Origin: an uncultured Thermodesulfobacteriota bacterium
GTDB taxonomy: Bacteria; Desulfobacterota; Zymogenia; Zymogenales; Zymogenaceae
Direction of reading: 5' to 3'
NCBI GenBank assembly: GCA_964542895.1
Contig: CAZIWT010000002.1
Span: 2,730 to 66,729 of the forward strand
Length of the DNA stretch: 64,000 nucleotides
Position numbers and translations under genes: made by a program. The notes under the pieces are model-generated. The model did no database searches. It worked only from the letters and a program-made list of their open reading frames with translations, and was not told where the DNA came from. Of the stretch, positions 34,179 through 52,623 are shown in pieces. Within the stretch, counting starts at the first letter, position 1. Each line of letters starts with the position of its first letter.

Positions 34179-34269
34179 TTCTGTTCCCTGTCGAGATCTG
34201 CCTTGTTTTTAAAATCTATCGGCCGTTTTGACCGCCGTTTTTCAATTTATCTGTTCAAGTAAATACGGT

Positions 34270-35211: not shown

Positions 35212-35270
35212 AGCCTTGTGTTAGTTGAAAAACAATCTTAAGTTGAAAACTATTGAATTCGTTAAAACAG

Positions 35271-36203: not shown

Positions 36204-36786
36204 CTACGACCTCCCTTATCTTGGACCAGAGCTTCTCCTTTCCGGTACCCTTGAGAGATGAGAAGACCACGATGTCATCCGGCCTGCATCCGAGGGTCTC
36301 GGCTATCTTTGCCAGCTGGCCTTTGACTTTATTTTTCTTCTCCTTGTCCGCCTTTGTGGCCACGACGAGGGAAGGGATATCGTTTTCCTTTAACCACAGG
36401 AGGAAGGAGAGCTCCTCCTCTTCCGGTCCCCGCCTTATATCGACTATTACGACGACGAGCTTGAGGGCCTCGTTTCCCGTGAGATATTTTTCCACCATGG
36501 GGCGCCACGATCTCCTCATCTCAACCGGGACCTTGGCGTAGCCGTAGCCCGGGAGGTCGACGAAGACGAGCTCGTCATTGATGTTGAAGAAGTTTATCTC
36601 CCTCGTCCTGCCGGGCGTTGAGGATGTCCTGGCGAGCTTCTTTCTCCCTACGATACTGTTGATCAGGGACGATTTCCCCACATTGGAGCGCCCCGAAAAG
36701 GCCACCTGGGGCCTATCTTTAAACTCCCTTAAAAAGTCGCCCGGGTCCGTCGCCCCCATGATAAACTCGGCCTTTTTGATTTTCAT
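36196..36786 (-). CDS. engB: ribosome biogenesis GTP-binding protein YsxC/EngB
   Basis: G1 GRSNVGKSS, G3 DLPGYGYA, G4 TKADK. 8-nt overlap with ispE. Confidence 0.85.
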   Translation of the reverse strand: MKIKKAEFIMGATDPGDFLREFKDRPQVAFSGRSNVGKSSLINSIVGRKKLARTSSTPGRTREINFFNINDELVFVDLPGYGYAKVPVEMRRSWRPMVEKYLTGNEALKLVVVIVDIRRGPEEEELSFLLWLKENDIPSLVVATKADKEKKNKVKGQLAKIAETLGCRPDDIVVFSSLKGTGKEKLWSKIREVVGV

Positions 36787-36797
36787 GGCTAAAACTC

Positions 36798-37394
36798 TTA
36801 ATATTTTTGCCCGGTCCTAAACATAACTTCCCAAATCTCATCCAACAGGACGTCCCTGTTCAACCGTGTGATCTCAAAGAGCCTGACGTCCCCCCGGCGC
36901 TTTATGCCGGTTATGAAATCGTCTCCCGCGGATTTCTTGGAGACGGTGGCGACCACCGTTCCGGCACAGTCCATTGCCCCCAAGACGGCGCTTTTAAATT
37001 TCTCCGACAGACATTCCATCTTTCCTATCTCGTCTATTATCGTAATATCGGGGCCTTTCAAAATAGATGGGACGGCGACCTCATCGATGTTTTTCAAAAA
37101 AACGGTGTAGCTCCCCATCCTGGCGAAATCAGCGCTTGAACCCTTTTCCGCGCTCGATGCGGTCGATTTTACCGCCAGCGGGACCCTCTTGGAGCCGGCG
37201 CCGAAGGGGACCGTTATTATGTCGAATCCCACCCTCCCCCTGTCGCCCCTGACCTCTATTGTGACAAAGCCGGATTTTTCGCCCTCGATTTTGTCGATGA
37301 GATCGATGATCAGGGTAGTCTTCCCGGAGCCGGGGAGTCCAGTGATGAGGATGTGTCGCCGCCGATCTCCTTGATCTTCTCTCGTTTTTTCCAT
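36798..37394 (-). CDS. THEP1-like nucleoside-triphosphatase
   Basis: ILITGLPGSGKTTL Walker A near the N-terminus. ~190 aa, typical of the NTPase_1 family. Confidence 0.65.
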   Translation of the reverse strand: MEKTREDQGDRRRHILITGLPGSGKTTLIIDLIDKIEGEKSGFVTIEVRGDRGRVGFDIITVPFGAGSKRVPLAVKSTASSAEKGSSADFARMGSYTVFLKNIDEVAVPSILKGPDITIIDEIGKMECLSEKFKSAVLGAMDCAGTVVATVSKKSAGDDFITGIKRRGDVRLFEITRLNRDVLLDEIWEVMFRTGQKY

Positions 37395-38457: not shown

Positions 38458-39318
38458 ATGATATTTAGAAGAAAAAAAGAGATTAAGTGCTCAACTGCGG
38501 GAGAAAACGACGAGCTTAGAACGGTCGAAATCGACGGGCTGACCATCTCGTACAAGATCAGCGGCTCCGGGCCGCCCCTCGTCTTCTTCCACGGCTGGAT
38601 AGGACACGAGGACACGTTCGGCCTTTGTCACGAGGGTTTCGGCCGCCACTTCACCGTCTATCGTCCCGCCTGGCCCGGGTACGGCGGAAGCACCCCGATG
38701 CGCGGCTTTACCATCGAGGATTTCGTTGAGGTGGGGAGAAAATTCATGGACAAGCTGGGTTTGAAAAAAGTCACCCTCATAGGAAATTGCCTCGGAGGTA
38801 ACGTGGCGATGGAGTTCGCCCAGCGCCATCCGGAATATCTGTCGAAAATGATCTTGATCGAGACCCACGCGTACTTCCCGAACTACCTCTATCCCCTCCT
38901 GACGCCGGGGCTGGGGGCGTTCATATACTGGTTCGTTTTCAAGAACATGACGATGTTTAACGTCCTCAACTCCTTTATGCCCATTCAGCAGAAGGACATA
39001 AGCGACGACTTCCCCTACACCTGGGAGGGATTCGAGAGAACGCGCATAAGGAGCGCCCTCGGCTTTTTGAGGGCGGTCTACAAGTACTCCAAGAAGACGG
39101 GTGACGATTACGTCGACAACTACAAGGCGGACGTGCCGATCCTTTACGTCGAGGGGGGAAAGACGTTCGGGCCCGTGGGCACCTTTTCTCAGAAGGTCAG
39201 GGAGCACTTCGATAACACCGAGATAGTCTCACTGCCGGAGGCGGAGCACAACCCGGTGTGTGAGAAACCGGAGATATTCAACGAGCGTGTCCTCAAGACG
39301 ATGGGGTTTGACTCCTAA
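38458..39318 (+). CDS. alpha/beta-fold hydrolase with a Cys in the nucleophile-elbow position
   Basis: LVFFHGWIGHEDTF oxyanion region. The elbow reads IGNCLGGN (G-x-C-x-G, like the dienelactone hydrolase GYCLGG) rather than GxSxG. Confidence 0.75.
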   Translation: MIFRRKKEIKCSTAGENDELRTVEIDGLTISYKISGSGPPLVFFHGWIGHEDTFGLCHEGFGRHFTVYRPAWPGYGGSTPMRGFTIEDFVEVGRKFMDKLGLKKVTLIGNCLGGNVAMEFAQRHPEYLSKMILIETHAYFPNYLYPLLTPGLGAFIYWFVFKNMTMFNVLNSFMPIQQKDISDDFPYTWEGFERTRIRSALGFLRAVYKYSKKTGDDYVDNYKADVPILYVEGGKTFGPVGTFSQKVREHFDNTEIVSLPEAEHNPVCEKPEIFNERVLKTMGFDS

Positions 39319-39667: not shown

Positions 39668-41263
39668 TCAGGAGTCTTGATACTTTTCCACCAAAAGGTA
39701 TTTCTTGATTTTCCCCGTGGGAGTTCTGGGTAAATTTGTGGTAAATATGAACTTCTTCGGAGTCTCGAATACTTTGAGCCTTTCCGAACAGTATTGCCGA
39801 AGGTCTTCTTTCTTTATATCCATTCTGGGATTTCTCATTACTACGGCCGCAAGTATTTCCCCCTCTCGTTTTTCTTTAAGGGCGATTACGGCACAATCGA
39901 TAACCGCCTCATTCGATTTTATAACGTTTTCCACGTCCAACGAGGGGATATCGTTCTCCCCAATGGTCAACGTGTCCTCCCTCCTTCCCATAATATAAAG
40001 GAATCCGTCTTCATCGAATCTGCCGATATCACCGGTGTGAAACCAGCCGTTCACAATGGTCTCCTCGGTTTTCTCTTTGTTCTTCAGGTATCCGGTGGTC
40101 TGGGCGATATTTTTCGCCGTGATCTCCCCTTTTTCCCCGATCGGTGCGTCTTTCCCGTCGTCACGCAGGATCTTGACCTCCGATCCAAAATAGGGGGTGC
40201 CGATGGATCCCGGCTTTTTCCTCTTCTCCTCCGGCCCGATACCGGTCAAAAGCCCGCATTCGGAAAGCCCGTAGTATTCATAGACGTTTGGACAAAGCCG
40301 CTCGTATACCTTCTTAAGCAGATCTTCGGAGAGGGGCCCGCCGGTAAAGATCAATCCCCGAAGGGAGGAAAGGTCGAATTTGTCGAGGTCCGGGAGCTTC
40401 ATTATAACGGAGGCTATGATGGGGATCCATGTCGTGACGGTGACCTTCTCCCGCTGGATTATCTCGAGGATCTTTACCGGGTCGAAGTTGAGGATCACGT
40501 TTTTCGCCCCGATGAAGAGCCCCACTCCGCACCAGCTGAAGCCGGACCTTCCCGTTATCGGTATGACCGTCAGGATGGTATCGTCTGCGGTTACGTCGTG
40601 GGCGAAGGCGAAAAAGGGGAGTGCCGCAAAGTTGGCACCGTGTGTGATAAGAAAAGGCTTCGGCAGTCCCGTTGTCCCGGATGTCATATTGATAAACTCG
40701 TTGTCCCTGCTTACCACGACAACATCCGGCTCATCCCTGGACGCACTCTGTATCAACTCTTCATAGGGCGTAGCGAATTCGGGAGGATCATCACCGATGT
40801 ATATATAGTGCTTGACATTGGGAAGGGAGTCGAGGGCCTCGAGGAGCAGCTTCCTCGAGTCTTCGCAGAAGACCACGGTATCGGCGTCCGACAGATTTAT
40901 GTAGTCGATCATTTGGGGCCGTTCCATCTTGTAGTTCAAGGGGAGGCCGATGACACCCGTCTTTGCCAGGGCCCCGTATGTCTCGAATATTTCGGCCCGG
41001 TTGTCGATCAGGAAGGCGCAGGTGTCCCCTTTTTTCAACCCCATTTCAATAAGGGCGTTGCCGATACGGTTGATGCGGTCGTTGAACTCCCTGAAAGTAA
41101 ACCTCCTTCCCGTTTTGACGCAATATATCGCCTCCCTGTCACCGTATTTTATGGAGGCAATTTTAGCAAGATTGCCTACTCCTATTTCGTGTTCCGAGTA
41201 ACTCATTTTTCCTCTAAAGAAAAAAGACTCAACGATCCATGAAACGCCTGACAAATCTTCCAA
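39668..41263 (-). CDS. AMP-dependent synthetase/ligase (acyl-CoA / fatty-acyl-AMP ligase family)
   Basis: TSGTTGLPKP AMP-binding motif, GEI, GWFHTGDIGRFDEDGFLYIMGRRED. Overlaps the upstream peptidase ORF by 35 nt. Confidence 0.85.
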   Translation of the reverse strand: MEDLSGVSWIVESFFFRGKMSYSEHEIGVGNLAKIASIKYGDREAIYCVKTGRRFTFREFNDRINRIGNALIEMGLKKGDTCAFLIDNRAEIFETYGALAKTGVIGLPLNYKMERPQMIDYINLSDADTVVFCEDSRKLLLEALDSLPNVKHYIYIGDDPPEFATPYEELIQSASRDEPDVVVVSRDNEFINMTSGTTGLPKPFLITHGANFAALPFFAFAHDVTADDTILTVIPITGRSGFSWCGVGLFIGAKNVILNFDPVKILEIIQREKVTVTTWIPIIASVIMKLPDLDKFDLSSLRGLIFTGGPLSEDLLKKVYERLCPNVYEYYGLSECGLLTGIGPEEKRKKPGSIGTPYFGSEVKILRDDGKDAPIGEKGEITAKNIAQTTGYLKNKEKTEETIVNGWFHTGDIGRFDEDGFLYIMGRREDTLTIGENDIPSLDVENVIKSNEAVIDCAVIALKEKREGEILAAVVMRNPRMDIKKEDLRQYCSERLKVFETPKKFIFTTNLPRTPTGKIKKYLLVEKYQDS

Positions 41264-41909
41264 CCGACCCCTTAATGATTCCGTATGTAAGATTTGCGGA
41301 ACTCAAACGGGCGAGGACGCCGCCAAACCGGGGTTTTACGAGACCCTTTCCCTCACGCCTTATCATCGTGACCTTGAGGATCCCGTCGCCCTTGAGGATT
41401 CGGGGGGTGTCGGGATCGGTCATGTTGTCCCCCTTGGTTGTAACCGTGAGGTTCTTTTCGTTTTTCCTGATATTGCTCTTACCGATATTAATAACACGGT
41501 GGGCTATATATCTCTCCTCTTCCGGGAAGCACACTATGTCACCAGGCTTAATATTTCCCCCCCTCCCGTCCACTTTTATTACGATGAGGGTATCCCCGGG
41601 CCTTAAAGCCGGGTACATGCTGTAGCCGAAAAAGGGAACCGACCTTATATCTTCCGATCTCACGCTTCTGATCTCACAAACCGGCCTAAAATCAGGGTTT
41701 GAGGCCGCCGACGCATCCGGCGCCGGAGGGAATGCCGCCGCCCCTGCATCCCAGGGCGTTAAAATTTCCATCACGGCACTGTCCCGCATAAGGATTCCCG
41801 CCACCCGCACAATTTCCCGTGGCTTGTCCGCCTCCGGTACAAAGGCTTGAAGCCTGATTTCCGCCGCGGCATATTGATTGTCCCAGCGCCTGGACTCTAT
41901 CCACCTCAA
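41229..41909 (-). CDS. S24/S26-family (signal-peptidase/LexA-like) serine peptidase, probable leader peptidase; start ambiguous
   Basis: FGYSMYPALRPGDTLIVIKVD ... GDIVCF ... YIAHRVINIG matches the S-M-x-P...GD...K/H catalytic arrangement. The ORF-track start is TTG at 41909, which overlaps precursor A. Internal candidate starts are at 41789, 41771 or GTG 41663. Confidence 0.55.
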   Translation of the reverse strand: MRWIESRRWDNQYAAAEIRLQAFVPEADKPREIVRVAGILMRDSAVMEILTPWDAGAAAFPPAPDASAASNPDFRPVCEIRSVRSEDIRSVPFFGYSMYPALRPGDTLIVIKVDGRGGNIKPGDIVCFPEEERYIAHRVINIGKSNIRKNEKNLTVTTKGDNMTDPDTPRILKGDGILKVTMIRREGKGLVKPRFGGVLARLSSANLTYGIIKGSVGRFVRRFMDR

Positions 41910-41949
41910 GGGCTATCACCATCGGCGGCTCGTAAATTTTCTTCTTCAT
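41692..41949 (-). CDS. RiPP precursor peptide A (leader KKKIYEPPMVIALEVDRVQALGQ; 6-Cys Gly-rich core)
   Basis: 85 aa. Core SIC-x9-C-x9-C-x10-C-x9-C-x10-C with CxGG repeats. The leader is almost identical to precursor B. Confidence 0.6.
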   Translation of the reverse strand: MKKKIYEPPMVIALEVDRVQALGQSICRGGNQASSLCTGGGQATGNCAGGGNPYAGQCRDGNFNALGCRGGGIPSGAGCVGGLKP

Positions 41950-42031
41950 AAAATTGGTTACCTGAAAATACGTCTAAAAGCAGTAAAAAGTATCATGATC
42001 ACACAAAAAACCCCTCACTTTATTTTACGCC

Positions 42032-42265
42032 TTATTGATTGCTACCCGTTAAGTATTGACTGGACGCTGAGCTATCGTCCCTGCAATTCCCCTCGGCGGT
42101 GGAGCCGATCCCGCAGTTGTTGTTCGGTCTGGCGCCGGACCAGCGGTTATTCGGTTGCGCTCCCCCCCCGGTACATATATCCATTGACCGACAGCCTAAA
42201 TCCCATTCTCGTTGAGCTCAATGATCGTAGTTGATTGATACAACTTGGTTTTTAATCTCTTCTTT
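42032..42265 (-). pseudogene. degenerate third precursor-peptide paralog (nonsense + frameshift)
   Basis: The minus strand reads ...LYQSTTIIELNENGI*AVGQ, aligning to KKYEPPKIIDMNVDYVQALGQ with TAG where the paralogs have CAG (Gln). After a G8 homopolymer the next frame gives NNNCGIGSTAEGNCRDD with the C-x9-C spacing. No ATG. Confidence 0.35.
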
Positions 42266-43254
42266 TATGTCCTCTCTCTAAAAAAAGTCAAAGGATTAAT
42301 GCTGCGGGTAAAATGGATATTATGAAATGGAAAACGCTCTACTATCTCCCTTACCAATGTAAAGGTCTCTTTCGCCTCTCTTTCGGGGAAGTATCTGAAG
42401 AAGTGGATATGATTGTGCAGAATCCTCAACATTGCCTCCCCGGGTTTGATCTCTTCCAAATAATCATCTTCATCCTTTATCAGGAAGAAGAATCTCTTCG
42501 CTGAAACAGTCTCCCCACAGTTTTTTCTGCTTGACACCTGGGTAAATGGGGACGGCATCGTATAGTAGCACCTCCCCCGCCGAAATAAGAGAGAGCCGTC
42601 GTCGGCCAGGAGCCTATCCTTCCCTATGAGATCGGCGATGGTGCTCTTTCCCGCTCCGGATCCCCCGAAAAAGATATATCCCCCGCCATTGATTTCCGCC
42701 GAACAGGCGTGAAGCATCATACCTCCGTACAGCGGGGCGAAAAGCCCGACCGTCGCCTGAACAGCAAGGGATATGGTAGAGGCGTCGTCGAAAAAGCCAC
42801 TTTTTAATAAAAAAACCTCTCCCGAGGGTCTATCATAATTGATTAACAGGAGAAATGAGTTGTGGTGTAGGACTGCTATCCTGTCCTTTTTAAGTAGTGG
42901 TGTTAGATACGGAAATCCTTGAGACTCCACATTATCCTTCGACTTTACACGTCCCATTCTACTACTTCCCCTTTTCCAGCCGAAGGGGAGTTGACCGAAA
43001 GGGAACCTCTTCTCTACTCTGAGGAAATAATTTTCTAAAGCCCTGATCTCATCTCCGTTAAAGAGGCTTTTTAAAGGGACATCACTCCATTCTTGTATGA
43101 CAAGGGGGAATCTTTCTTCTCTGTTAGATAATATGTAATCCGAAAACTTCTTGGTTATGGCCTCCATAAACCGGTTATCATCTTCGCCTTTATAAGTTAT
43201 TTCGAGTTTTACCCCTCCTATATCGATATTAATCGAGATCATTCCAATTTTCAA
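42265..43254 (-). CDS. HPr-kinase-related kinase (HprK C-terminal-domain-like)
   Basis: P-loop FFGGSGAGKST plus a downstream LLADDGS-type segment, as in HprK/lasso-peptide kinases. 329 aa. Confidence 0.55.
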   Translation of the reverse strand: MKIGMISINIDIGGVKLEITYKGEDDNRFMEAITKKFSDYILSNREERFPLVIQEWSDVPLKSLFNGDEIRALENYFLRVEKRFPFGQLPFGWKRGSSRMGRVKSKDNVESQGFPYLTPLLKKDRIAVLHHNSFLLLINYDRPSGEVFLLKSGFFDDASTISLAVQATVGLFAPLYGGMMLHACSAEINGGGYIFFGGSGAGKSTIADLIGKDRLLADDGSLLFRRGRCYYTMPSPFTQVSSRKNCGETVSAKRFFFLIKDEDDYLEEIKPGEAMLRILHNHIHFFRYFPEREAKETFTLVREIVERFPFHNIHFTRSINPLTFFRERT

Positions 43255-43319
43255 ACACTAAAATAGTCTTCAAAATCTCATTGCCCAACTAATTGAACGA
43301 AAATTTAATTTTGATGAAA

Positions 43320-43664
43320 TCAGCTTGGCACAGATCCCGTGGTGCAGCTCCCGGCAGGGATGGTCCCCGAATCGCACCTGCCGCCGAAGGCCGTTGTACC
43401 CGCCTTACACATACCTCCGAAGGCCATACCGCCGCTCTGACACTTCCCGCCGGCTCCGCTGGGATCGCCCCCCGCCTGGCAGCGGGCACCCGCGGAGCTA
43501 CCGGATTGGCACTTTCCCCCATAGGCCATATTACCGAACTGACACATCGTTTCCGCAGACGGCCCGGTGTTACACTGTCCGGGTGTAACCGTCTGCCCCA
43601 GCGCCTGAACGTAATCCACATTCATATCGATAATCTTCGGTGGCTCATATTTCTTCTTTGTCAT
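43320..43664 (-). CDS. RiPP precursor peptide B (leader MTKKKYEPPKIIDMNVDYVQALGQ; 8-Cys Gly-rich core, C-terminal Ser)
   Basis: 114 aa. Core repeats C-(Q/N/K)-(S/A/T)-G...G-(K/R/M) with Cys every 9-12 residues. Ends ...TTGSVPS. Confidence 0.6.
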   Translation of the reverse strand: MTKKKYEPPKIIDMNVDYVQALGQTVTPGQCNTGPSAETMCQFGNMAYGGKCQSGSSAGARCQAGGDPSGAGGKCQSGGMAFGGMCKAGTTAFGGRCDSGTIPAGSCTTGSVPS

Positions 43665-43693
43665 GGAGTTTCCCCGAATGTTAAAATCAAAAA

Positions 43694-43719
43694 AAAGTTA
43701 GTTTAAAATGAAGGTCGTT
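43694..43719 (-). promoter_or_regulatory. perfect 7-bp inverted repeat (GGTCGTT-N7-AACGACC) in the 5' region of precursor B
   Basis: Lies 30-55 nt upstream of the precursor B start, within a 248-nt AT-rich gap after the rSAM gene. Confidence 0.3.
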
Positions 43720-43912
43720 AGATGAAACGACCGTTATAAGTCCTTGAATTATATTAAAAACGGGAGACGCTTCCTATCTATTTAAAATCGTATTTTCGAT
43801 CTTTTAATGTGAAATTCTCAAAGGTCTTTCTTATATTCCCTTAAATCCGTCTGAAACCATAGTATTTGATATCAACCTTTAAAGCTAATCCTCCGATCTC
43901 GATTATCATTCC

Positions 43913-44995
43913 TCATATAATTCTCGTCTCCGGGAAGATGCCCATCTCGTACGCCTCCTGGCAGATGCGGTCAGGAGCGGAGAGATCCCCGTGAAGCACG
44001 TAGGCGTTCGCCCTGCACGAACCGAGGCACAATCCCTTCAAGATACACCTCCCGCAGATACCCTTCATGTTGTCGGGCACAATCCTCCTCAATTCCGACA
44101 AGACAGGGCTTTTTCTCCACAACTCTTCAAGATTGTCCTCCCTTATATTTCCTATAACGAGTTCCGGCACCTCCTTTCCTATCCCGCAGATGGATATGTG
44201 CCCGGATGCGATTATGCCGATTATGTTGAGGATGTGACACTGGGCGTTGTTCCCATTGAAAAAGGAGTCTATCTTTTTGAAGGCCGATGGTATGGTGAAG
44301 TAGGTCTGGATATCGTACTTCTCCTTCAGATCGTTTTCCACCCACGAAGATAACCTGATAAGCTCATCGACAGGGACCGTCTTTCCCCCTTCCGTCAATT
44401 TCCCTCCCCTCCCTATAGGCATCACCGGGTTGAACTTGACCGAGTTGGCGTTGAGGCGCTTTGCCATGTCGACAACCCCCTCGATATCCCCGGAGTTGTC
44501 CCCTATCAGGCTCATGATGATCTGTACCCTCAATCCCTGGCTCACCATATTCTCGACGCCCGTAACCGCATCATCCCACGAACCCTCAACGCCGCGAAAG
44601 GAGTCGTGAAACTTGGGGTTGATGCTGTCGATGCTGACGCTTATCGAGGATGCATTGCTCCGCTTCAAGAAGGCCGCCGTATTTTCGTCTATCAGGGTCC
44701 CATTTGTCTCGATATCCATCACGAGCTCTTCCGACGATATTACCTCGATTATCTCGAATATCTCCCTGTTGATAAACGGCTCTCCCCCGGTGAGCTTTAT
44801 GTTGAAAAGGCCTATCGGCCTTCCCTCTTTTATGATCTTCCTTACGTCGTCAGCCGTTATTCCGTCGGGGGCATCTTCGGTCTCCGGCACGAAGCTCGGG
44901 GTCAGCCAGCAGTGGGAGCACTTAAGGTTACAGCCCGAGGTCAGGTACAGATAGGCCGAATTCAATCGATAGCTCGGTTTTTCATCCGATTCCAT
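43913..44995 (-). CDS. radical SAM / SPASM-domain peptide-modifying enzyme
   Basis: CNLKCSHC (CxxxCxxC), GGEP. C-terminal Cys set QCHIL...ICGIG...ICGRCILKGLCLGSC typical of SPASM auxiliary clusters. Confidence 0.85.
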   Translation of the reverse strand: MESDEKPSYRLNSAYLYLTSGCNLKCSHCWLTPSFVPETEDAPDGITADDVRKIIKEGRPIGLFNIKLTGGEPFINREIFEIIEVISSEELVMDIETNGTLIDENTAAFLKRSNASSISVSIDSINPKFHDSFRGVEGSWDDAVTGVENMVSQGLRVQIIMSLIGDNSGDIEGVVDMAKRLNANSVKFNPVMPIGRGGKLTEGGKTVPVDELIRLSSWVENDLKEKYDIQTYFTIPSAFKKIDSFFNGNNAQCHILNIIGIIASGHISICGIGKEVPELVIGNIREDNLEELWRKSPVLSELRRIVPDNMKGICGRCILKGLCLGSCRANAYVLHGDLSAPDRICQEAYEMGIFPETRII

Positions 44996-46142
44996 TCTCG
45001 AGCTCCTCGGTGTAAAGCTTGTAACAGCAGAACGGATCCCTGGCGAGCATCGTCCCGTAGGCGGAATACGCCGAGGCGGGGCACCCGGCGGTGCACATGG
45101 GAGCGTATCGGCAATCTCTGCAGGTAGAAAGGCTTGTCACCGGGGTCGTGAATCTCTTTCTGAACTCCACAAAGGTCTCGGACTCCCTCCAGATAATATC
45201 GAGGGGGGTGTCGAGGATATTTCCGGCCGTGATCTCCGGGAGGCGGTCGCAGGGGACCGCCCAGCCGTCCGGTCTTATGGCGCACTGGTTTTTTAAGGCA
45301 CCGCAGCCGGAGAGGAAGTGCGTGTTCGGATCGTAATTCTTGAGGTTATCAGGATTGATGTTTCTTATCCCCTCGAAAATCTCGTCCATCTCGAAAAAAG
45401 TCCCGGAGATAAACGGGTAATCACACCTTATCTCCTTTAACTCCTCGACAATCCTTTTTATCTCGACGGCGTCGAGCTTAAGCTCCTCCATATATTTCAG
45501 TCCCCGCCCCTCGTATAACAGGTAGTTGAACTTTACGCTCGAAATACCCGTGTCTGCCGCCAGCTCCGCTATGGCCTTCAGTTCCCTGAAATTGAGCCGG
45601 GTTACGGTGCAGTAGGCGCTGACATCGTGCCCGAATCGTATGAGATGCTTTATCCCGTTAAGGGCCGCCTTGAAGGCCCCGCTTCCCCTCAAAAGGTCGT
45701 GGGAGCTTGGTCCCGCCCCGTCGAGGCTGACCATTATGTCGTCCATCTTCCTGATGTACTTGGTGAGCCTCTTGGCAGCTCCTTCGTCTATCAATGTGGC
45801 ATTAGTGTTCAGGGAAATTCTCAAGGGCTTGCTGTAAAAGGCGTCCAAGATATCGTAGAAATCCTCCCGGACGAAAGGCTCCCCCCCGCTTATCTTTACC
45901 CTCAAGATCTTGAGCCTCTTTATCTCGTCGATAAAATCGAGCCACTGTTCGGTCGTGAGGTCCGGGCCGTAACTGAAGCCGTCCGAGTAGACAGCGCAGT
46001 GCTTGCACGCCTGGTTGCACCTCGACGTAATCGAGACAAAGAGGGACATCGGTGTCTTCGGTATCTGCGGGGTATAGGATATATCTAAAGTGTCGGAAGT
46101 CTCGCCCGCCGCAATGCCCCTTCCCATACTGTCTGTTTCCAT
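44982..46142 (-). CDS. radical SAM / SPASM-domain peptide-modifying enzyme (second copy)
   Basis: CNQACKHC, GGEP. C-terminal GCGALKNQC...PC...CRDCRYAPMCTAGCP. 14-nt overlap with the downstream rSAM gene. Confidence 0.85.
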   Translation of the reverse strand: METDSMGRGIAAGETSDTLDISYTPQIPKTPMSLFVSITSRCNQACKHCAVYSDGFSYGPDLTTEQWLDFIDEIKRLKILRVKISGGEPFVREDFYDILDAFYSKPLRISLNTNATLIDEGAAKRLTKYIRKMDDIMVSLDGAGPSSHDLLRGSGAFKAALNGIKHLIRFGHDVSAYCTVTRLNFRELKAIAELAADTGISSVKFNYLLYEGRGLKYMEELKLDAVEIKRIVEELKEIRCDYPFISGTFFEMDEIFEGIRNINPDNLKNYDPNTHFLSGCGALKNQCAIRPDGWAVPCDRLPEITAGNILDTPLDIIWRESETFVEFRKRFTTPVTSLSTCRDCRYAPMCTAGCPASAYSAYGTMLARDPFCCYKLYTEELENGIG

Positions 46143-46181
46143 TGGATAAAGCCCCTATTTTACATTCTTGGAGGAAAAATA

Positions 46182-46460
46182 CTATTCGGAGAGGAAGCCC
46201 CGCGCCTTTATCTGCTCGATGAACTCCTCCACGTCTTTTTTTACAGCGTCCGATTCGACCTCCGTGTATTGAGTCAACACCTTCTTTACGATGTGGTCGA
46301 TGCTGTTCTTGCCGTTCAGCTCCTTGAAGACCAAGACCCCGGTCTCGTTCAACGCCTGAAGAGTGTCCTGTATCGGATCGAAGAGAAACGCACCGTCGTC
46401 CTCCTCCCGAAGGACGATATCGTCCTTTATCGAGGGGTAGTTAGTTTTATTGTTTCCCAT
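46182..46460 (-). CDS. PqqD-family RiPP recognition element protein
   Basis: 92 aa with the fold-defining pattern LFDPIQDTLQALNETGVLVFKELNG...SIDHIVKKV...EVE...DVEEFIEQIKARGFL. Confidence 0.6.
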   Translation of the reverse strand: MGNNKTNYPSIKDDIVLREEDDGAFLFDPIQDTLQALNETGVLVFKELNGKNSIDHIVKKVLTQYTEVESDAVKKDVEEFIEQIKARGFLSE

Positions 46461-46809
46461 TTACTACGACTCCCTTTTTGAAGAATTCAACGTATATCCT
46501 TTTTACGTCCTTAAAAACCGTATCGAACTCCTCGCCGTACATCTCCCCTATGATCCTCGATACCCCGTTTACGTCGATCTTCCCGTTCGTTTTCGAGTAG
46601 ACCTTTGAAGCCGTTTCGTTGATCAAGATGGAAGTCCTTCTCTCCGAATCGAAGAGGAGGCCCTCTCCACCCTCAAACTCGACCGAGAGTATGTGGGGAC
46701 CTTTTTTGAATATGGTGCCCCCGCTAACCGGCGGTGGTTTCGGTACCCTCGGATTTTTTGCGCTTTTGTTTCTGATGAAATCTATTGCTTGCCTTAAAAT
46801 GGGCGGCAT
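46447..46809 (-). CDS. second PqqD-like protein (divergent)
   Basis: 120 aa. LLFDSERRTSILINETASKVY...GVSRIIGEMYGEE...VFKDV..IYVEFFKKGVV. 14-nt overlap with the adjacent RRE gene. Confidence 0.45.
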   Translation of the reverse strand: MPPILRQAIDFIRNKSAKNPRVPKPPPVSGGTIFKKGPHILSVEFEGGEGLLFDSERRTSILINETASKVYSKTNGKIDVNGVSRIIGEMYGEEFDTVFKDVKRIYVEFFKKGVVVNGKQ

Positions 46810-47960
46810 TACCCTTTCCTGCGAAAAAAGATGCCGAAGAGAGATTTCAGGAGGTGGATCGTTCTCAAAAAATAGAGTTTTACCATTTCCCCACGATCCG
46901 CAACCCTTCCCTGCTCCCTAAAAAGAATACTTCTTTCGGGGAAAAGCAACTCATTATAATAATAGAACTTTTTTCTTGAATTGTCAATATCTAAGCCCAA
47001 TAGGATATCGCCGAACTGGAGGGAGCGCCTGCTCCCGATCGCCGCCGATATCAGCCTCCTCTCGATTGGGCCGGGCCTGAAACCGGAGACTTCGTTTGGC
47101 TTTAGGGGAAAACCGAACCGCTCCGTTATGATCCAGAGCATCTTCCCGACGACCTTTGACAATTTGCCGGAGGCTATCATCTCAAAGAGGAGATCGGTGG
47201 AAAACCTGTCGCCGAGGCATTCGATCACCCTCCCCACATCCATAAACCAGTAGTTCATAAGATAGGAGTGTTTCAGGGCGTGTTGGGCCGAGATTATTAT
47301 TGTGTGGTAGGGATTGGGAGAAAGGTAATCGGCGTCCCCTATTTTAACTTTTTCGGCCGACGCGAATATCTCGTCTGTGGATAGGGTCGGGAGATACTCT
47401 CTCGCCCTTATCCTCCCCTCGTCGATTATCTCTGTGTGGAGGTCAAAGTAAAGAGAACCTTTCGACCAGTGGGCCGGGATTTCCCCCCCGGGTTCGGTCG
47501 TAAACGGCTCGTACCCCGCCCCTCTCAATATCTCGGATGCCTTCCTAATGTCGCATCGATAGACCAGAATATCGGCGTCGGTGGTGGGCCTTATCCTGAA
47601 ATCGTTGTAGTAGCGGTTGATGATGTCGTGACCCTTGATGAGGACCGCGTTTATCCCCCCATCATTGAACAGCTTGAATATCGCCTCGAGCTCCCGCTTC
47701 ATCGCCATGTTCAACAACTCCGTACGGGCAAGCGTCGTCCTGGCCCTCTCAAACTCCGCCTCGTCGATAAGGGAGAGGAGCCCCCAGTCGGTCAGGGCAG
47801 AGATCAGTATCCCGAGGGAGCCCTTGTCCACGGTAAAGGGAACGAGGTCTTTCGGAAGCCTCTCAATTTGCGGGGTGGGCGCCGGGGTGTTCCCTCCCCA
47901 AGCCCATCGGCTTGCCAGGGCGAGCCCGATTATCTCGCTTGCACTTAGAGATAGAGCCAA
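46809..47960 (-). CDS. nucleotidyltransferase-family protein (PF14907-like), TTG start
   Basis: LIKGHDIINRYYNDFRIRPTTDADILV segment. GGAGG 6 nt upstream of TTG at 47960. 1-nt overlap with the following gene. Confidence 0.5.
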   Translation of the reverse strand: MALSLSASEIIGLALASRWAWGGNTPAPTPQIERLPKDLVPFTVDKGSLGILISALTDWGLLSLIDEAEFERARTTLARTELLNMAMKRELEAIFKLFNDGGINAVLIKGHDIINRYYNDFRIRPTTDADILVYRCDIRKASEILRGAGYEPFTTEPGGEIPAHWSKGSLYFDLHTEIIDEGRIRAREYLPTLSTDEIFASAEKVKIGDADYLSPNPYHTIIISAQHALKHSYLMNYWFMDVGRVIECLGDRFSTDLLFEMIASGKLSKVVGKMLWIITERFGFPLKPNEVSGFRPGPIERRLISAAIGSRRSLQFGDILLGLDIDNSRKKFYYYNELLFPERSILFREQGRVADRGEMVKLYFLRTIHLLKSLFGIFFRRKG

Positions 47961-48091: not shown

Positions 48092-48121
48092 TTGACAAAG
48101 GAGCCTCAATAAAAGTATAAT
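48092..48121 (+). promoter_or_regulatory. strong sigma70-type promoter TTGACA-N18-TATAAT
   Basis: TTGACA 48092..48097 and TATAAT 48116..48121, about 36 nt upstream of the 48158 ATG. Divergent from the RiPP operon. Confidence 0.55.
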
Positions 48122-48157: not shown

Positions 48158-49624
48158 ATGGTGATGAAAGTGAGAGCTGAACTTGAAGAGAGCGCCAAGG
48201 CGCTGAAAAAAATTTTGAACGCGAAGTCCCTGGCCGTGGTGGGGGCGTCCAACAGCTTTATGAATCCCGCCACGAACCTCCTGGCCACAATACTCTCCAG
48301 CGGATACAAGGGGGAGGTCTACCCGATCCACCCGAAGGAGGATATCGCCCTGGGGCTCAAGGCATACCGGAGTGTCGTGGATATCCCCGGGGATGTGGAC
48401 CTTGCCGTTATCGTTGTCTCCAACAGGATCGTCCCCAAAATACTGAAAGAGTGCGCCGAGAAGGGGATAAAGAGCGTCGTTGTCATAACGGCGGGATACA
48501 AGGAGATGGGAAAAGAGGGGGCAAAGCTCGAGGAGGAGCTTTTAAAGACCGCGAGGGAGCTCGGCATCCGGTTTACCGGCCCGAACTGCATCGGGATCAT
48601 CAACACCCACAACGACCTCGACTGCTCCATGTTCTACTACGAGGGGGTCCCCGGCGGGGTTGGGCTCGTCTCACAGAGCGGGAGCTACATCACACAGCCG
48701 CTCCCCTATTTCTACAGGAGGGGAATAAACCTCTCCGGCGCGATAAGCGTGGGCAACCAGACCGACATAGACATCGCCGACTGCCTGGCCTATTTCGTCG
48801 AAGATGACAAAACAAACGCCGTCGCCGCGTACATCGAGGGGATAGGGGACGGGGAGAAGTTCATCGAGGCGGCCCGCGCCTTAACTGCAAAGAAGCCTCT
48901 GGTCGCCCTATACGTCGGCGGGACGGAGGCGGGCTCCAGGGCCGGGAAGTCCCACACAGGAGCCGTGGCGACCCCCGACCTCGTCATCGACGCGGTCTTC
49001 GCCCAGACGGGCGTGATAAGGGCAAAAGACGTCCAGGAGCTCTTCGACTTCGTCCACGCCCTCTCCCTCCAGCCGCTGCCGAAGGGGAGCCGCGCCGCCG
49101 TCATCACCAACTCCGGGGGGCCGGGGGTCTCCATGGTGGATGCCGCTGTGAGGCTGGGGCTCAGTGTGCCGGAGTTCTCGAAACCGTTTCAGAAAAAACT
49201 CAGGGAGATAAGCATCCACACGGCCCAGGTGGGAAACCCGGTCGATATGACGATGGACTTTGACATCAAAAAGCAGTTCATCGACATTACGAAGATGGTT
49301 ATAGAGAGCGGGGAGGTGGATTCCATCCTCTTTTACGGCGTCTTCGGCGGGACCAACTTCGACAAGAAATTCGAGATCCTGGGGATAGCACAGGACGACC
49401 TGCGACTCGGCTATTACAAATATATTGATCAGGTGATCGAGGAGTTCAACGGGATAATAAAGTCCTTCGACATCCCCGTGGTAACGGCCTCCTTTACCGG
49501 CAGGGAGGAGCCGGCCGTTGCGAAGATGATCGAGAAGGGGATACCGATCTACTCCACGCCGGAGCGGGCTTCTGCGGCCCTGGCGGCCATGGCGAGATAT
49601 GCCAGGTTCAGGGGGTTGTTTTAG
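48158..49624 (+). CDS. acetate--CoA ligase (ADP-forming) alpha-subunit-like CoA-binding protein
   Basis: N-terminal CoA-binding Rossmann domain (LAVVGASN...GYKGEVYPIHPK...VDLAVIVV). Succinyl-CoA-synthetase-alpha-like middle domain (GPNCIGII). Confidence 0.7.
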   Translation: MVMKVRAELEESAKALKKILNAKSLAVVGASNSFMNPATNLLATILSSGYKGEVYPIHPKEDIALGLKAYRSVVDIPGDVDLAVIVVSNRIVPKILKECAEKGIKSVVVITAGYKEMGKEGAKLEEELLKTARELGIRFTGPNCIGIINTHNDLDCSMFYYEGVPGGVGLVSQSGSYITQPLPYFYRRGINLSGAISVGNQTDIDIADCLAYFVEDDKTNAVAAYIEGIGDGEKFIEAARALTAKKPLVALYVGGTEAGSRAGKSHTGAVATPDLVIDAVFAQTGVIRAKDVQELFDFVHALSLQPLPKGSRAAVITNSGGPGVSMVDAAVRLGLSVPEFSKPFQKKLREISIHTAQVGNPVDMTMDFDIKKQFIDITKMVIESGEVDSILFYGVFGGTNFDKKFEILGIAQDDLRLGYYKYIDQVIEEFNGIIKSFDIPVVTASFTGREEPAVAKMIEKGIPIYSTPERASAALAAMARYARFRGLF

Positions 49625-49717
49625 AAATCTCGTTGGGGTTTTTCGGAGCCGGTTTTTTGTGGTTTGTATAAACGATAGTAATATGATATTTTCTTAAAAT
49701 CTGAGATTTTTAATATC

Positions 49718-50881
49718 ATGGAACTAGCATTTCGGGAACAAATACTCTTGTTCTTGGCTCTCCCCGTTTTGATAGGCGGATTAATTGCATTAATTCTGTA
49801 TAGGTTGTCAAAAAAACACCAAACTCAAGAGACCGATAGATTAATAGAAACGTTGAAGAAAGAAATTAAACCGGTTCCAATCGTTTTGGTTCCAGAATTA
49901 CAACCTGTAATAACTGAAGAAAAACGCCAAAGGATCGTTTCGCTGGTTCAATCTATAAGCAAACAGAAACTAATAGAGCTCTTCGACATCGAATTACTCA
50001 TCAGGCTTGGTAATACAGAATACGAATTTAGTAACTATTCTGAGGCACTTAACTACTGTAACATGGCTCTTAAAAAGGCGAGAATTACTTCCAATAAATG
50101 GGCTATAGCAGCATGTCTTAATAATATTGGTCTTTTAGAATTCCATATGGATAAGTTGGATCTTGCCGAAAAAAATCTAATAGAAGCACAACACATTTCG
50201 AAGGAGATTAAAGATAGAAATATCGAAGCTAGCACTCTCGGAAACATCGGGCTTGTCTACAAGCATAAAGGAGACCTACGGGGTGCATTGAAACAATATA
50301 AGGAGTCCCTGTCAATATGCCGAAAAATCGGGAATAGACATGGAGAGGCAATCGGCTTGTTTAACATCGGGCGTGTCTACAAGAATATGGGAAACCTGAA
50401 AAAAGCATTGGAGCACTACGAAGATGCTCTGAATATAGACCAGGAGATCGGTTATAGGAAGGGAGAAGCAGATAACCTTGGAGGCATAGGGAATGTCTAC
50501 AGCGATATGAGAGATCTGAAAAGAGCTCTTAAGTACTTAGAAGAAGCTGTAGCAATTTATCGGGAGATCGGGCACAAGCGGGGAGAGGCATATGACCTCG
50601 GAAACATCGGTATTGTCTACATGACCAAAGGGAACTTGAAGAAGGCATTGAAACATTTTGAGAAGGCTCTAAATATCCACCAGGAAATCGAGTATAAAAA
50701 GGGTGAGGCGGCCGACCTCGCAAAAATTGGGATTGTCTACGGTATAAAAGGAAAGAAAGAAGAGGCACAGAAATATTTCAATGAAGCGCTGAAAATTCTT
50801 GAGGATTATAACCTTATTCATGAGAAAGACGTTATTTTGGGAGCAGTCAAATTAGTAGAAAACGGGCATAACAAAAAATAA
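49718..50881 (+). CDS. TPR-repeat protein with N-terminal transmembrane helix (low-GC gene)
   Basis: At least 7 tandem 40-aa repeats of GEA.(L/I)GNIG.VY...G.L..AL..Y...L.I. Clearly AT-richer than its flanks. Confidence 0.8.
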   Translation: MELAFREQILLFLALPVLIGGLIALILYRLSKKHQTQETDRLIETLKKEIKPVPIVLVPELQPVITEEKRQRIVSLVQSISKQKLIELFDIELLIRLGNTEYEFSNYSEALNYCNMALKKARITSNKWAIAACLNNIGLLEFHMDKLDLAEKNLIEAQHISKEIKDRNIEASTLGNIGLVYKHKGDLRGALKQYKESLSICRKIGNRHGEAIGLFNIGRVYKNMGNLKKALEHYEDALNIDQEIGYRKGEADNLGGIGNVYSDMRDLKRALKYLEEAVAIYREIGHKRGEAYDLGNIGIVYMTKGNLKKALKHFEKALNIHQEIEYKKGEAADLAKIGIVYGIKGKKEEAQKYFNEALKILEDYNLIHEKDVILGAVKLVENGHNKK

Positions 50882-51019
50882 TCCAAATCACCTACTATTT
50901 AAACAAATCCTTCAAGACGGAAACCAAGAAGCCGAGAAAGGAACAAAATCCCTTGACAAAAAAGGAAGGGGATGTTACTTTATACGTTCAAGTTTTGGAA
51001 ATATCAAACATAGTGGCGT

Positions 51020-51095
51020 GGGCTATTAGCTCAATTGGTAGAGCAACTGACTCTTAATCAGTAGGTCCTAGGTTCGATCCCTAGATAGCCCACCA
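51020..51095 (+). tRNA. tRNA-Lys (anticodon CUU)
   Basis: GGGCTATTAGCTCAATTGGTAGAGCAACTGACTCTTAATCAGTAGGTCCTAGGTTCGATCCCTAGATAGCCCACCA. 76 nt with an encoded CCA. Confidence 0.85.
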
Positions 51096-51144
51096 CTTTT
51101 GAAAATTCTTATAATCGGCGGATGGTCTCACCTCTCGCAACAAA

Positions 51145-51230
<86 letters not shown>

Positions 51231-51300
51231 AACAACCCACCTTATTCAATTTTTTAGCAATAATAGCCATAATTCAAACAGTGTCGTAGGAGCTGACTTA

Positions 51301-52623
51301 ATGAAGGTAAGCGTTGAAGAAATAAGCCCGGTCAAGAAAAAAATCTCGGTCACCGTCAAGAAGGACGCCGTGAACGAGGAGTTCGAAAGGTCTTACAAAT
51401 CGCTCGGCAAAAAGGCCAAGGTAAAGGGGTTCAGGCCCGGGAAGGTCCCCCTCCATATTCTGAAGCAGCAGTTCAAGGAGCAGGTGGAGGCGGACGCCAC
51501 GGAAAACCTCTTCAAGAGCACCTACCCGGACGCCCTCACCGAGGTAAATATAAACCCGATCACGTATCCCGAGGTGGACACCAAAGGGGCGAAGGAGGAT
51601 GAGGAGTTCGCCTACACTGCGACCGTGGAGATCATGCCGGAGGTTAAGGCAACGGGCTACAAAGACCTCGAGATAGAAAGGGAGAAGGTCGCGGTCTCCA
51701 AAAAGGAGATCGACGACGTGATAAAAAACTTCGCCAACTCCAACGCCACGCTGGAGACGGAGGAGAAGAACCGCCCCGTTAAGAAGGACGATGTGGTAAT
51801 GGTCGACTTCAAGGCCTCATCGGAGGGTGAGCCGATAGAGGGGGGCCAGCTGGAAAACTACCCCCTGGAGATAGGGGCGGGGCTTCTGGGGGAGGAGTTC
51901 GACAAAAAGATTATCGGAGGCAAAAAGGACGAGGAGCTGGATTTTGAGATCGACTTCCCGGAAGACCACAGGATGGACATCTTCAAGGGTAAAAAGGTGA
52001 AGTTCGACGTCACGGTCAAGGAGATAAAGGTAAAGAAGGTACCGAAGATAGACGACGAGTTCGCAAAGGATTTGGGTAGTTTCGAGTCGCTGAAGGAGCT
52101 GACGGAGGATGTCGGAAAGAGGCTCACGGAAAAGGAGGAGAATAGGGTCAAGGACGATTTCGAGAAGAGGATAATGACAAAGCTCATCGAGCTGAATCCC
52201 TTCGAGGTCCCGGACGCCCTCGTGGAGTCGAGGAGCGTCGATCTTGTCAGGAACACCGAGATGAGGCTGAGAAGCCAGGGGATGTCCCTGGACGCCCTGG
52301 GGGGCGACCCGAAAAAGCTGATGGAGATGGTAAATCCCCAGGCCGTCTTCGACGTGAAGGCGAGGTTCATAATTGAGGAGATAGCCAAGGCGGAGGGTAT
52401 CGAGGCGACAAAGGAGGAGGCGGAAGAGAGACTGAAGGAGGACGCGGAGCGCTCCGGGATGAACTACGAGGAGCTTAAGGGCAGCTACGACCAAAACAAC
52501 GCCTGGGGGGAGCTGATCTACGTGGTTCGCTCGGAAAAAACCCTTGATTTTCTCGCAAAGATTGTTAAAATAAAAGAGGTGAAGAAAATCAAGTCGGAAG
52601 AGGGTGGCGGGCAGGAAATTTAA
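51301..52623 (+). CDS. tig: trigger factor
   Basis: MKVSVEEISPVKKKISVTV N-terminus, PPIase-like middle domain, 440 aa. Upstream of clpP-clpX. Confidence 0.9.
   Translation: MKVSVEEISPVKKKISVTVKKDAVNEEFERSYKSLGKKAKVKGFRPGKVPLHILKQQFKEQVEADATENLFKSTYPDALTEVNINPITYPEVDTKGAKEDEEFAYTATVEIMPEVKATGYKDLEIEREKVAVSKKEIDDVIKNFANSNATLETEEKNRPVKKDDVVMVDFKASSEGEPIEGGQLENYPLEIGAGLLGEEFDKKIIGGKKDEELDFEIDFPEDHRMDIFKGKKVKFDVTVKEIKVKKVPKIDDEFAKDLGSFESLKELTEDVGKRLTEKEENRVKDDFEKRIMTKLIELNPFEVPDALVESRSVDLVRNTEMRLRSQGMSLDALGGDPKKLMEMVNPQAVFDVKARFIIEEIAKAEGIEATKEEAEERLKEDAERSGMNYEELKGSYDQNNAWGELIYVVRSEKTLDFLAKIVKIKEVKKIKSEEGGGQEI

Follow-up and report, generated by a model that had tools for sequence, protein, structure and literature searches.

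A probable RiPP biosynthetic operon of the SynChlorMet cassette type in a relative of Candidatus Zymogenus saltonus

Identification of the operon

The window analysed here is a stretch of 64,000 nucleotides from an uncultured Thermodesulfobacteriota bacterium (contig CAZIWT010000002.1, positions 2,730 to 66,729), and the subject of this report is a gene series on its minus strand (39668–47960). We assign this series, with a probability of about 75%, to the biosynthetic operons for peptides that the ribosome makes and that are modified after translation (RiPPs), and within these to the SynChlorMet (SCM) cassette type, the host being related to Candidatus Zymogenus saltonus. The operon is a clade-specific, divergent and extended variant of a family that is defined in databases and apparently uncharacterised; it is not a new class. 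An open reading frame (ORF) listing of 38–50 kb yielded ten intact genes in one direction and one decayed precursor gene, and, together with Pfam and NCBIfam scans of the operon proteins, it recovered the whole co-oriented series of genes that an initial annotation of the sequence had listed. The RiPP-type character proposed in that annotation was borne out as well, by Cys-rich precursors bearing leaders, two radical S-adenosylmethionine (radical SAM)/SPASM enzymes and PqqD-like recognition proteins. From the upstream to the downstream end of the operon the genes are as follows.

46809–47960, minus strand: PF14907 (NTP_transf_5) nucleotidyltransferase-like protein, 383 aa (Pfam E 4e-28)
46447–46809, minus strand: second, divergent PqqD-like protein of the RiPP recognition element (RRE) type, 120 aa; 1-nt overlap between its start and the stop of the upstream gene
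46182–46460, minus strand: ScmD-like peptide chaperone of the PqqD family, 92 aa (PF05402, E 2.6e-13)
44982–46142, minus strand: ScmE-like radical SAM/SPASM enzyme, 386 aa (Radical_SAM and SPASM domains, PF04055 and PF13186)
43913–44995, minus strand: ScmF-like radical SAM/SPASM enzyme, 360 aa (PF04055, PF13186); overlaps ScmE by 14 nt
43320–43664, minus strand: precursor B (ScmA-like), 114 aa; leader MTKKKYEPPKIIDMNVDYVQALGQ, followed by 8 CxxG repeats
42265–43254, minus strand: ScmC-like P-loop kinase-like protein of the HprK/phosphoenolpyruvate carboxykinase (PEPCK) type, 329 aa; start TTG 43254 or ATG 43242
42032–42262, minus strand: decayed third precursor (pseudogene), from direct reading of the sequence
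41692–41949, minus strand: precursor A (ScmA-like), 85 aa; leader MKKKIYEPPMVIALEVDRVQALGQ, followed by 6 CxxG repeats
41229–41663, minus strand: soluble S26-family peptidase (endoplasmic reticulum (ER)/archaeal, SipW-like Ser/His type), ~144 aa; candidate leader peptidase
39668–41206, minus strand: acyl/aryl-AMP ligase (acyl-CoA synthetase type), 512 aa (AMP-binding, E 6e-64, and AMP-binding_C)

Assignment to the SynChlorMet cassette

For each of the five core proteins (ScmD, ScmE, ScmF, ScmC and the precursor ScmA) the best NCBIfam match was a model of the SCM cassette. ScmF scored 366.4 bits with TIGR04251 (cut-off 400), over the full model length and >200 bits ahead of the next model; ScmE scored 235.3 bits with TIGR04250 (cut-off 400), the 92-aa protein 49.4 bits with TIGR04248, ScmD (cut-off 100), ScmC 24.7 bits with TIGR04249 (cut-off 125), and precursor B a weak 16.4 bits with TIGR04252, ScmA (cut-off 35). 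The gene order is likewise that of the cassette, co-oriented D-E-F-precursor-C-precursor, both in the window and in related loci. The related loci numbered 87 (5 genome loci, 80 metagenome loci and the contexts of selected homologues) and were annotated by phmmer searches in which window proteins, together with a small number of seeds, served as queries. A protein-database search with ScmF returned 328 proteins at E≤1e-30, many of which, including ones that are 81% identical, carry the JGI or NCBI name 'SynChlorMet cassette radical SAM/SPASM protein ScmF'. The initial annotation had recognised no named class in this gene combination, a statement that does not hold for the core, which is the SCM cassette (TIGR04248–TIGR04252; PF27840). 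It had also called the operon unannotated; this is true of the generic names in public records ('radical SAM protein', 'hypothetical') and of precursor A, which is hidden there, but not of the enzymes, which are called.

The window operon and the SCM cassette share the same five components (ScmA, TIGR04252; ScmC, TIGR04249/PF27840; ScmD, TIGR04248; ScmE, TIGR04250; ScmF, TIGR04251), the D-E-F-C order, a precursor beside ScmC and a leader of the YEPP type, for which an alignment to the ScmA model was obtained. They differ in that the window precursors are multiple and longer (6–8 repeats versus a ScmA model of 49 positions), and in that the window operon adds a second PqqD-like protein, a PF14907 protein, an S26 peptidase and an acyl-AMP ligase and is without an exporter. 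Genes for PF14907 proteins, S26 peptidases and ATP-binding cassette (ABC) exporters are not covered by the five SCM models, though they are common around SCM-like cores.

Several observations weigh against this assignment or against the pathway developed below. All five SCM scores are below the curated NCBI cut-offs, so that strict membership in the SCM equivalogs fails. The operon contains no exporter or immunity gene, and elsewhere in the window, too, an exporter like those of SCM loci was not found, the sole ABC match being an unrelated gene of ~300 aa. No experimental paper on any SCM product was found in the openly searchable literature, and the thioether chemistry considered here is for this reason pure analogy; to our knowledge, the SCM product is uncharacterised. 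Within the precursors no side-chain type other than Cys is conserved as an evident acceptor (only Gly at +3 and Ala/Pro at +6 of the repeat), and precursor A, which is poor in Ser/Thr and does not end in Ser, offers no evident target for a kinase. The ligase, finally, is tied to the cassette by conserved adjacency only. With regard to the scores, an SCM-like locus from an unrelated metagenome (L013) also stays below the cut-offs (ScmF 350, ScmE 245, ScmC 26, ScmD 46 and ScmA up to 30 bits); on this comparison the SCM equivalog models appear to be narrow, and the window operon belongs to a broader SCM-like family.

Precursor peptides

Precursor B is preceded by a Shine-Dalgarno motif (GGGGA, 7 nt upstream) and contains 8 Cys at spacings of 10, 11, 10, 13, 11, 11 and 10, all in C-x-x-G; a protein that is 95% identical is present in ENA. 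Precursor A, with a Shine-Dalgarno motif AGGT upstream, contains 6 Cys at spacings of 10, 10, 11, 10 and 11, again all in C-x-x-G. Its orthologues in Z. saltonus and in the Zymogenus metagenome-assembled genome (MAG) L005 are 85% and 71% identical. Judged by the retention of all six Cys in three genomes and by the position of the nucleotide differences from Z. saltonus (32 of 46 at third codon positions), precursor A is under purifying selection. The stretch ahead of the first Cys is A-L-G-Q-S in both window precursors. A K-x-x-Y-E-P-P-x-I leader and a core of 10–11-residue units centred on C-x-x-G are common to these two and the decayed third precursor.

The rule followed by the precursors was derived from 56 non-redundant candidates from the related loci. 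These were chosen for the presence of ≥3 CxxG motifs, a choice that by itself fixes Gly at +3; leader motif, Cys spacing and the preference at +6 played no part in it. In this set 296 of the 327 Cys are in C-x-x-G, and successive Cys are 10 (122 times) or 11 (74 times) positions apart. The repeat has Ala or Pro at +6 in 69% of cases and one of Ser, Gly, Asn and Thr at +4 in 68%. Ahead of the first Cys, positions −6, −4 and −2 are alternating Gly/Ala/Ser (61, 61 and 63%, respectively). The leader K-x-(K/P)-Y-E-(P/K/A)-P-x-(L/I/V)-x-x-L was present in 47 of the 56 precursors. The ~10-residue Cys periodicity described in the initial annotation was also observed, with spacings of mostly 10–11 in both window precursors and in the family, and the family rule is kept in every repeat of both window precursors. 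Precursor ORFs with the common leader and repeat were found in 50 of the 87 loci.

A lanthipeptide-like route, in which Ser/Thr at +4 is phosphorylated and eliminated and Cys is then added, was considered and rejected: Ser/Thr occupies +4 in 37% of the repeats only, and precursor A has Gly, Asn or Leu at this position.

The third precursor, described initially as degraded, is a true pseudogene. Its leader remnant (..TIIELNENGI*AVGQ) has an in-frame TAG at a position that is Gln in relatives, a frameshift before the core places a Cys-rich remnant in another frame, and the start codon is absent. MAG L005, which is without precursor B, carries the orthologue of this middle precursor (L005 1101–1490), with ten CxxG repeats that are rich in Trp (CWSG, CWDG) and intact but for one in-frame TAG exactly at the leader-core junction (..VQAVGQ*RCEAGG..). 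In Z. saltonus the middle precursor is a remnant that is more decayed than the window copy. The TAG in L005 is probably due to decay or an assembly error, odd as the position of the stop is. Decoding of this codon (by pyrrolysine or readthrough) was rejected as the default: with several disruptions of this gene in the window and a still more decayed copy in Z. saltonus, decay is the simpler account. Since precursor B is absent from Z. saltonus and L005 and the middle precursor is variably decayed, the precursor content is fluid among close relatives; the enzymes are conserved.

In JGI and NCBI-derived gene calls the S26 peptidase ORF is given as 226 aa and runs over precursor A in a different reading frame (41664–41909), and this over-extended call hides precursor A from public annotation. 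A protein-database search with both window precursors returned only 5 called proteins, a number that is no measure of the size of the precursor family.

Radical SAM/SPASM enzymes and leader recognition

By reading of the sequence, both radical SAM enzymes carry a CxxxCxxC motif and the SPASM motif C-x2-C-x5-C-x3-C; for ScmF, the elements CNLKCSHC and CGRC-x5-C-x3-C are invariant in 20 homologues. The nearest solved structures by sequence are SkfB, PqqE, CteB and SuiB (SkfB, PqqE and CteB in the case of ScmE), all of which are peptide-modifying, with weaker matches to anaerobic sulfatase maturase. After the SCM models, the second-tier NCBIfam matches are the heme synthase AhbD, WgkB (Trp-Lys linker), MftC and NirJ, and also MoaA. 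The presence of AhbD, NirJ and MoaA among these would fit a reading in which the enzymes are housekeeping types (heme/cofactor or sulfatase maturases) and the small Cys-rich ORFs chance frames; the initial annotation had itself named housekeeping types such as anaerobic sulfatase maturase, or small ORFs that are not conserved in relatives, as grounds against its interpretation. This reading is effectively refuted. The SCM models clearly outscore the housekeeping models for both enzymes, ScmE and ScmF are the best matches in NCBIfam, and the four peptide-modifying enzymes are the best matches in the PDB. Furthermore, dozens of related loci retain the small ORFs together with their leader and repeat, the substitutions in these ORFs are mainly at third codon positions, as expected under purifying selection, and Shine-Dalgarno motifs are present.

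Two PqqD-like RRE proteins had been proposed, and both are supported, the 92-aa protein by its PF05402 match and the 120-aa protein by a ScmD profile. The gene for the 92-aa protein overlaps its upstream gene by 14 nt. The 120-aa protein had no match in the Pfam scan; against a profile of 49 ScmD homologues (<130 aa, from the related loci) it scored 21.7 bits, with E 1e-8 for a single-sequence target. It also aligns to the N-terminal half of a fused double-PqqD protein of 205 aa in locus L010 (BLASTP, E 1e-12), it cross-matches the 92-aa protein, and its Z. saltonus orthologue has a weak PF05402 match. On the strength of the profile score, the alignment to the L010 fusion and the match of the orthologue, we classify the 120-aa protein as a divergent PqqD-like domain. 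In L010 (8202–8819) and L011 (8239–8814) both PqqD-like domains are fused in one protein of 191–205 aa; in the window they are encoded by two overlapping genes.

Cys-rich cores combined with SPASM enzymes have so far usually meant thioethers (SkfB, CteB, PapB, AlbA). In the pathway that we propose, the YEPP leader would be bound by the PqqD-like proteins, which would offer the core to ScmE and ScmF; these enzymes would modify each CxxG repeat, most likely by forming Cys-derived thioether rings of the sacti/ranthi type, arranged as a ladder of 6–8 small rings. Thioether rings are the chemistry on the CxxG units that we favour, by analogy with SkfB, CteB and PapB, at odds slightly short of even. 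Like the sacti- and ranthipeptide systems (SkfB; CteB/SCIFF; PapB/freyrasin), the window operon combines radical SAM/SPASM maturases with an RRE/PqqD element and Cys-rich cores. SkfB and CteB are among the closest solved homologues of the window enzymes, and a repeated short Cys motif is found in freyrasin as in the window precursors. The window operon differs from these systems in having two separate, unfused RRE proteins and two different radical SAM enzymes, and its repeat is CxxG without a conserved acidic or amide acceptor; thioethers are assumed here by analogy.

ScmE and ScmF could instead install a non-thioether modification on the CxxG units (C-C or C-O crosslinks, epimerisation, or oxidation or conversion of Cys), which would make the product a structurally new RiPP class and not a sacti- or ranthipeptide; this we regard as less likely than not. 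Both enzymes score far below the cut-offs of the ranthipeptide model PapB (NF047865; ~75 bits versus 340) and of the sactipeptide models AlbA and StsB, and their next-best models are AhbD, WgkB, MftC and NirJ. The positions conserved beside Cys (Gly at +3, Ala/Pro at +6) are untypical acceptors, and two distinct radical SAM enzymes are almost always present in the related loci. However, Cys is the one invariant functional side chain and occurs once per repeat, which together with the usual outcome of SPASM enzymes on Cys-rich cores and the proximity to SkfB and CteB argues for thioethers.

ScmC and the PF14907 protein

ScmC has a weak Pfam match to Hpr_kinase_C (E 0.0057), and the HPr kinase/phosphorylase models TIGR00679 and PF07475 gave 19.4 and 16.6 bits, below their cut-offs. 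The family PF27840, ScmC, is precomputed for an identical protein and for all 26 homologues. The protein contains the motifs GGSGAGKST and LLADDG; in an alignment with 33 homologues H182, G202 and K203 are invariant, and D218-D219 are kept in 31 of the 33. An AlphaFold (AF2) model built from 26 homologues (pLDDT 84, pTM 0.86) was compared with the PDB by Foldseek, and the best matches were ATP-dependent PEPCKs and HprK/P, with a probability of 1.0 and TM-scores of only 0.3–0.5. The initial description as an HprK-related kinase, for which the Pfam match is weak, is supported by the conserved motifs, the catalytic Lys and Asp-Asp among them, and by the model; the protein is itself the core component ScmC. 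In the PF14907 protein the D128-x-D130 motif (TDADIL) is intact, and 20 homologues from SCM-like loci all retain D128/D130, G110, R124, H175 and D241.

Pseudomycoidin, a lasso peptide, is phosphorylated at its C-terminal Ser by the HprK-type kinase PsmK during biosynthesis, and PsmN, an uncharacterised NTP-transferase, is then needed for the addition of hexose to the phosphopeptide; mutants in the Asp-Asp of PsmK and the DxD of PsmN are inactive (PMC6993621). The window operon resembles the systems for phosphorylated or glycosylated lasso peptides (paeninodin with PadeK; pseudomycoidin with PsmK and PsmN) in that an HprK-family kinase is accompanied by an uncharacterised NTP-transferase-like enzyme, and the Asp-Asp of ScmC and the DxD of the PF14907 protein correspond to the residues mutated in PsmK and PsmN. 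By analogy with this pair, ScmC would phosphorylate Ser/Thr and the PF14907 enzyme would elaborate the phosphate; PsmN is presumably a PF14907 member. The window operon differs from the lasso systems in being without a lasso cyclase or leader protease: neither an Asn-synthetase-like nor a transglutaminase-like domain was found in the ten operon proteins by Pfam and NCBIfam. ScmC differs from the lasso kinases by an extra N-terminal domain and resembles PEPCK as much as HprK, and of the two window precursors only precursor B ends in Ser.

S26 peptidase and acyl-AMP ligase

The peptidase matches PF10502 (E 1.7e-5) and TIGR02228 (53.2 bits, marginally above the cut-off of 51.85), and its motif GxSMxP..HR..GDN..D is conserved across 34 homologues. 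A hydrophobic anchor segment was not found, the maximum Kyte-Doolittle score of any 19-mer being 0.8. Orthologues are called as 139 aa, and since the length agrees with these, GTG 41663 is the most likely start. The GxSMxP, HR and GDN motifs are those of the ER/archaeal signal peptidase I (SipW-like, TIGR02228, MEROPS S26), and, like the substrates of that enzyme, the window precursors carry small residues at candidate −3/−1 positions. The window peptidase differs from it in the missing membrane anchor, the small size (~144 aa) and the location inside a cytoplasmic peptide-maturation operon. Type I signal peptidases follow a −3/−1 rule, and the small residues at −6, −4 and −2 in the family precursors fit this rule. 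We infer that the S26 peptidase acts as a RiPP leader peptidase; its cut would fall at the small-x-small motif that directly precedes the first Cys and reads A-L-G-Q-S in precursors A and B alike. We know of no precedent for a RiPP leader peptidase of the S26 Ser/His type.

The ligase gene starts 22 nt downstream of the S26 gene. The best NCBIfam match of the protein is PRK06187 (367 bits versus a cut-off of 476). A ligase lies directly downstream of the S26 gene also in L005, in the Z. saltonus contig L093 and in L011, where the cassette has another genomic location and the identity of the ligase is 46%; in the others of the 87 related loci no ligase was found. By this distribution the ligase is an accessory gene specific to the Zymogenus clade. 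It may supply or attach an acyl group, which is the least certain step of the proposed pathway.

Conserved neighbourhood in related loci

The recurring order in the related loci is (NTP5)-D-E-F-precursor-C-(precursor)-S26-(ABC exporter), in which NTP5 denotes the PF14907 gene. In the 29 loci of ≥9 kb the gene counts were as follows; they are lower bounds, because the contigs are incomplete and the queries were single sequences.

ScmD, 27 loci
ScmE, 24 loci
ScmC, 18 loci
precursor, 18 loci
S26 peptidase, 16 loci
PF14907 protein, 13 loci
ABC exporter, 11 loci

Over all 87 loci, the PF14907 family was found in 19 and the ABC exporter in 18. As the kinase, the nucleotidyltransferase and the S26 peptidase all recur around the same core, they regularly accompany, on this gene-content evidence, the SCM core, and their mixture is not new. 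The features that set the Zymogenus clade apart are the acyl-AMP ligase, the second divergent PqqD-like protein, the absence of an ABC exporter and a variable number of precursors.

The initial annotation had seen in the operon a mixture of ranthipeptide-like and lasso-kinase-like machinery, which would make it a previously unnamed hybrid class. No published description of the gene set was found in the openly searchable literature, all SCM scores are below cut-off, and the acyl-AMP ligase and second RRE-like protein are outside the SCM definition. Against this, the five core genes have their best matches in the SCM models and follow the order of the SCM genes, and ScmC (PF27840) is what the kinase-like protein is. 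Genes for PF14907 proteins and S26 peptidases accompany the core in many lineages, many unrelated metagenomic loci among them, and no lasso cyclase or B-protease is among the operon proteins. A newly joined hybrid class is therefore improbable.

Genes for the export and polymerisation of exopolysaccharide (Poly_export, Wzz/GNVR, Wzy_C, glycosyltransferases, Bac_transf) stand immediately upstream of the cassette in several relatives, as in L010 (649–6958), L011 (1–6953), L012 (15164–21173), L001 (263–2068) and L013. These cassettes are accompanied by an ExeA-like AAA ATPase and an HD-GYP protein; an ExeA-like gene is present in 5 and an HD-GYP gene in 8 of the 87 loci. This gene context hints at a link to the matrix or envelope. 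The product could thus be a cell-associated modified peptide, matrix- or exopolysaccharide-linked or metal-binding, instead of a secreted antibiotic-like compound. Such a product would explain the missing exporter, the window operon being without an ABC exporter, as well as the phospho/glycosyl and acyl tailoring enzymes. We nevertheless regard it as rather unlikely: the window copy is located among housekeeping genes with no polysaccharide genes nearby, the ABC exporter in 18 of the 87 SCM-like loci fits a secreted peptide, and the adjacency to polysaccharide genes in the relatives could be coincidence.

A gene for a 23S rRNA-intervening-sequence protein (PF05635) lies between scmE and scmF in L012 (9601–9969 of a 4.3-Mb contig), and a second PF05635 copy is present upstream of the cassette of this locus.

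Taken together with the assignment to the SCM type, the individual steps would describe SCM-like peptides as a structurally undescribed RiPP class, in which 6–12 decapeptide CxxG units are each modified by ScmE/ScmF, the leader is removed in the cytoplasm by a Ser/His S26 peptidase, ScmC and the PF14907 enzyme carry out phospho-glycosyl tailoring, acylation takes place in the Zymogenus clade, and the peptides may have an envelope or matrix role instead of acting as antibiotics. This composite picture is put forward tentatively, and we would not expect it to hold in all its parts.

The SCM cassette has so far been a database entity, consisting of five hidden Markov models, with no product, chemistry or function in the openly searchable papers found. 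The SCM-like family is large, with at least 575 ScmF relatives in one metagenome scan, and its precursors obey a strict and simple rule, with decapeptide repeats of the CxxG type placed after a YEPP leader. The genes conserved around the core go beyond the five models and include those for the PF14907 enzyme, the S26 peptidase and the ABC exporter, and the number of precursor genes differs between close relatives. These properties make the system directly testable by heterologous expression, which could reveal new radical SAM chemistry and a new kind of leader peptidase. The window operon is accordingly a well-defined and widespread 'known unknown' and not a new class found here.

Operon boundaries, flanking genes and host

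The upstream half of the operon is tightly packed, with one overlap of 1 nt and two of 14 nt. The overlapping or tight boundaries claimed initially were found in this half. The peptidase and precursor A do not overlap: the peptidase ORF (41229–41909) is shortened to the most likely start GTG 41663, 29 nt past the precursor A stop. The ligase ORF (39668–41263) is likewise shortened, to the start ATG 41206. The following elements were placed at the borders of the operon and within it; the first two had been named in the initial annotation and were both recovered.

48092–48121, plus strand: consensus promoter, TTGACA-18-TATAAT (12/12, consensus scan), ahead of a divergent CoA-binding/succinyl-CoA-ligase-like gene
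38458–39318, plus strand: alpha/beta hydrolase, converging on the 3' end of the operon
46959–46987, minus strand: promoter-like site, TTGACA-17-TATTAT (11/12, consensus scan only), inside the nucleotidyltransferase gene

The promoter-like site lies ~150 nt upstream of the RRE and radical SAM genes and is a possible internal promoter. For the first gene of the operon, the consensus promoter scan gave no site comparable to this one or to that at 48092–48121. Terminator-like matches in the operon were not in excess (14 versus 11.3±4.1 in shuffled sequence), and an Rfam scan yielded four tRNAs only and no regulatory RNA close to the operon.

The 90% protein cluster of the window ScmF includes a member from Candidatus Zymogenus saltonus, and synteny with the window, housekeeping flanks included, is seen in the Z. 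saltonus contig L093 at a nucleotide identity of 77–85%; the cassette occupies the same housekeeping position in both. By these comparisons the operon host is a relative of Candidatus Zymogenus saltonus. At the nucleotide level, nothing in the Z. saltonus locus, which is syntenic apart from this, matches one window segment (42887–43893) that comprises precursor B, the AT-rich region upstream of it and the 5' part of scmC. ScmE and ScmF are 84% and 89% identical to the Z. saltonus enzymes and ScmC only 64%. The gap and the low identity of ScmC suggest recombination within the cassette, or gain and loss of precursors.

Housekeeping genes surround the operon on both sides (29392–37394 and 48158–52623), and no mobility genes were seen among them. 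They comprise H+-pyrophosphatase, ribosomal protein L25, phosphoribosyl pyrophosphate synthetase, tRNA-Gln, a GHMP kinase and an EngB-like GTPase, and further NTPase_1, a tetratricopeptide repeat protein, tRNA-Lys, tRNA-Leu and trigger factor. Elsewhere in the window, an ORF on the minus strand (13532–14536) weakly matched the ScmE and ScmF queries as a radical SAM protein (E ~1e-7); it probably encodes an unrelated radical SAM enzyme.

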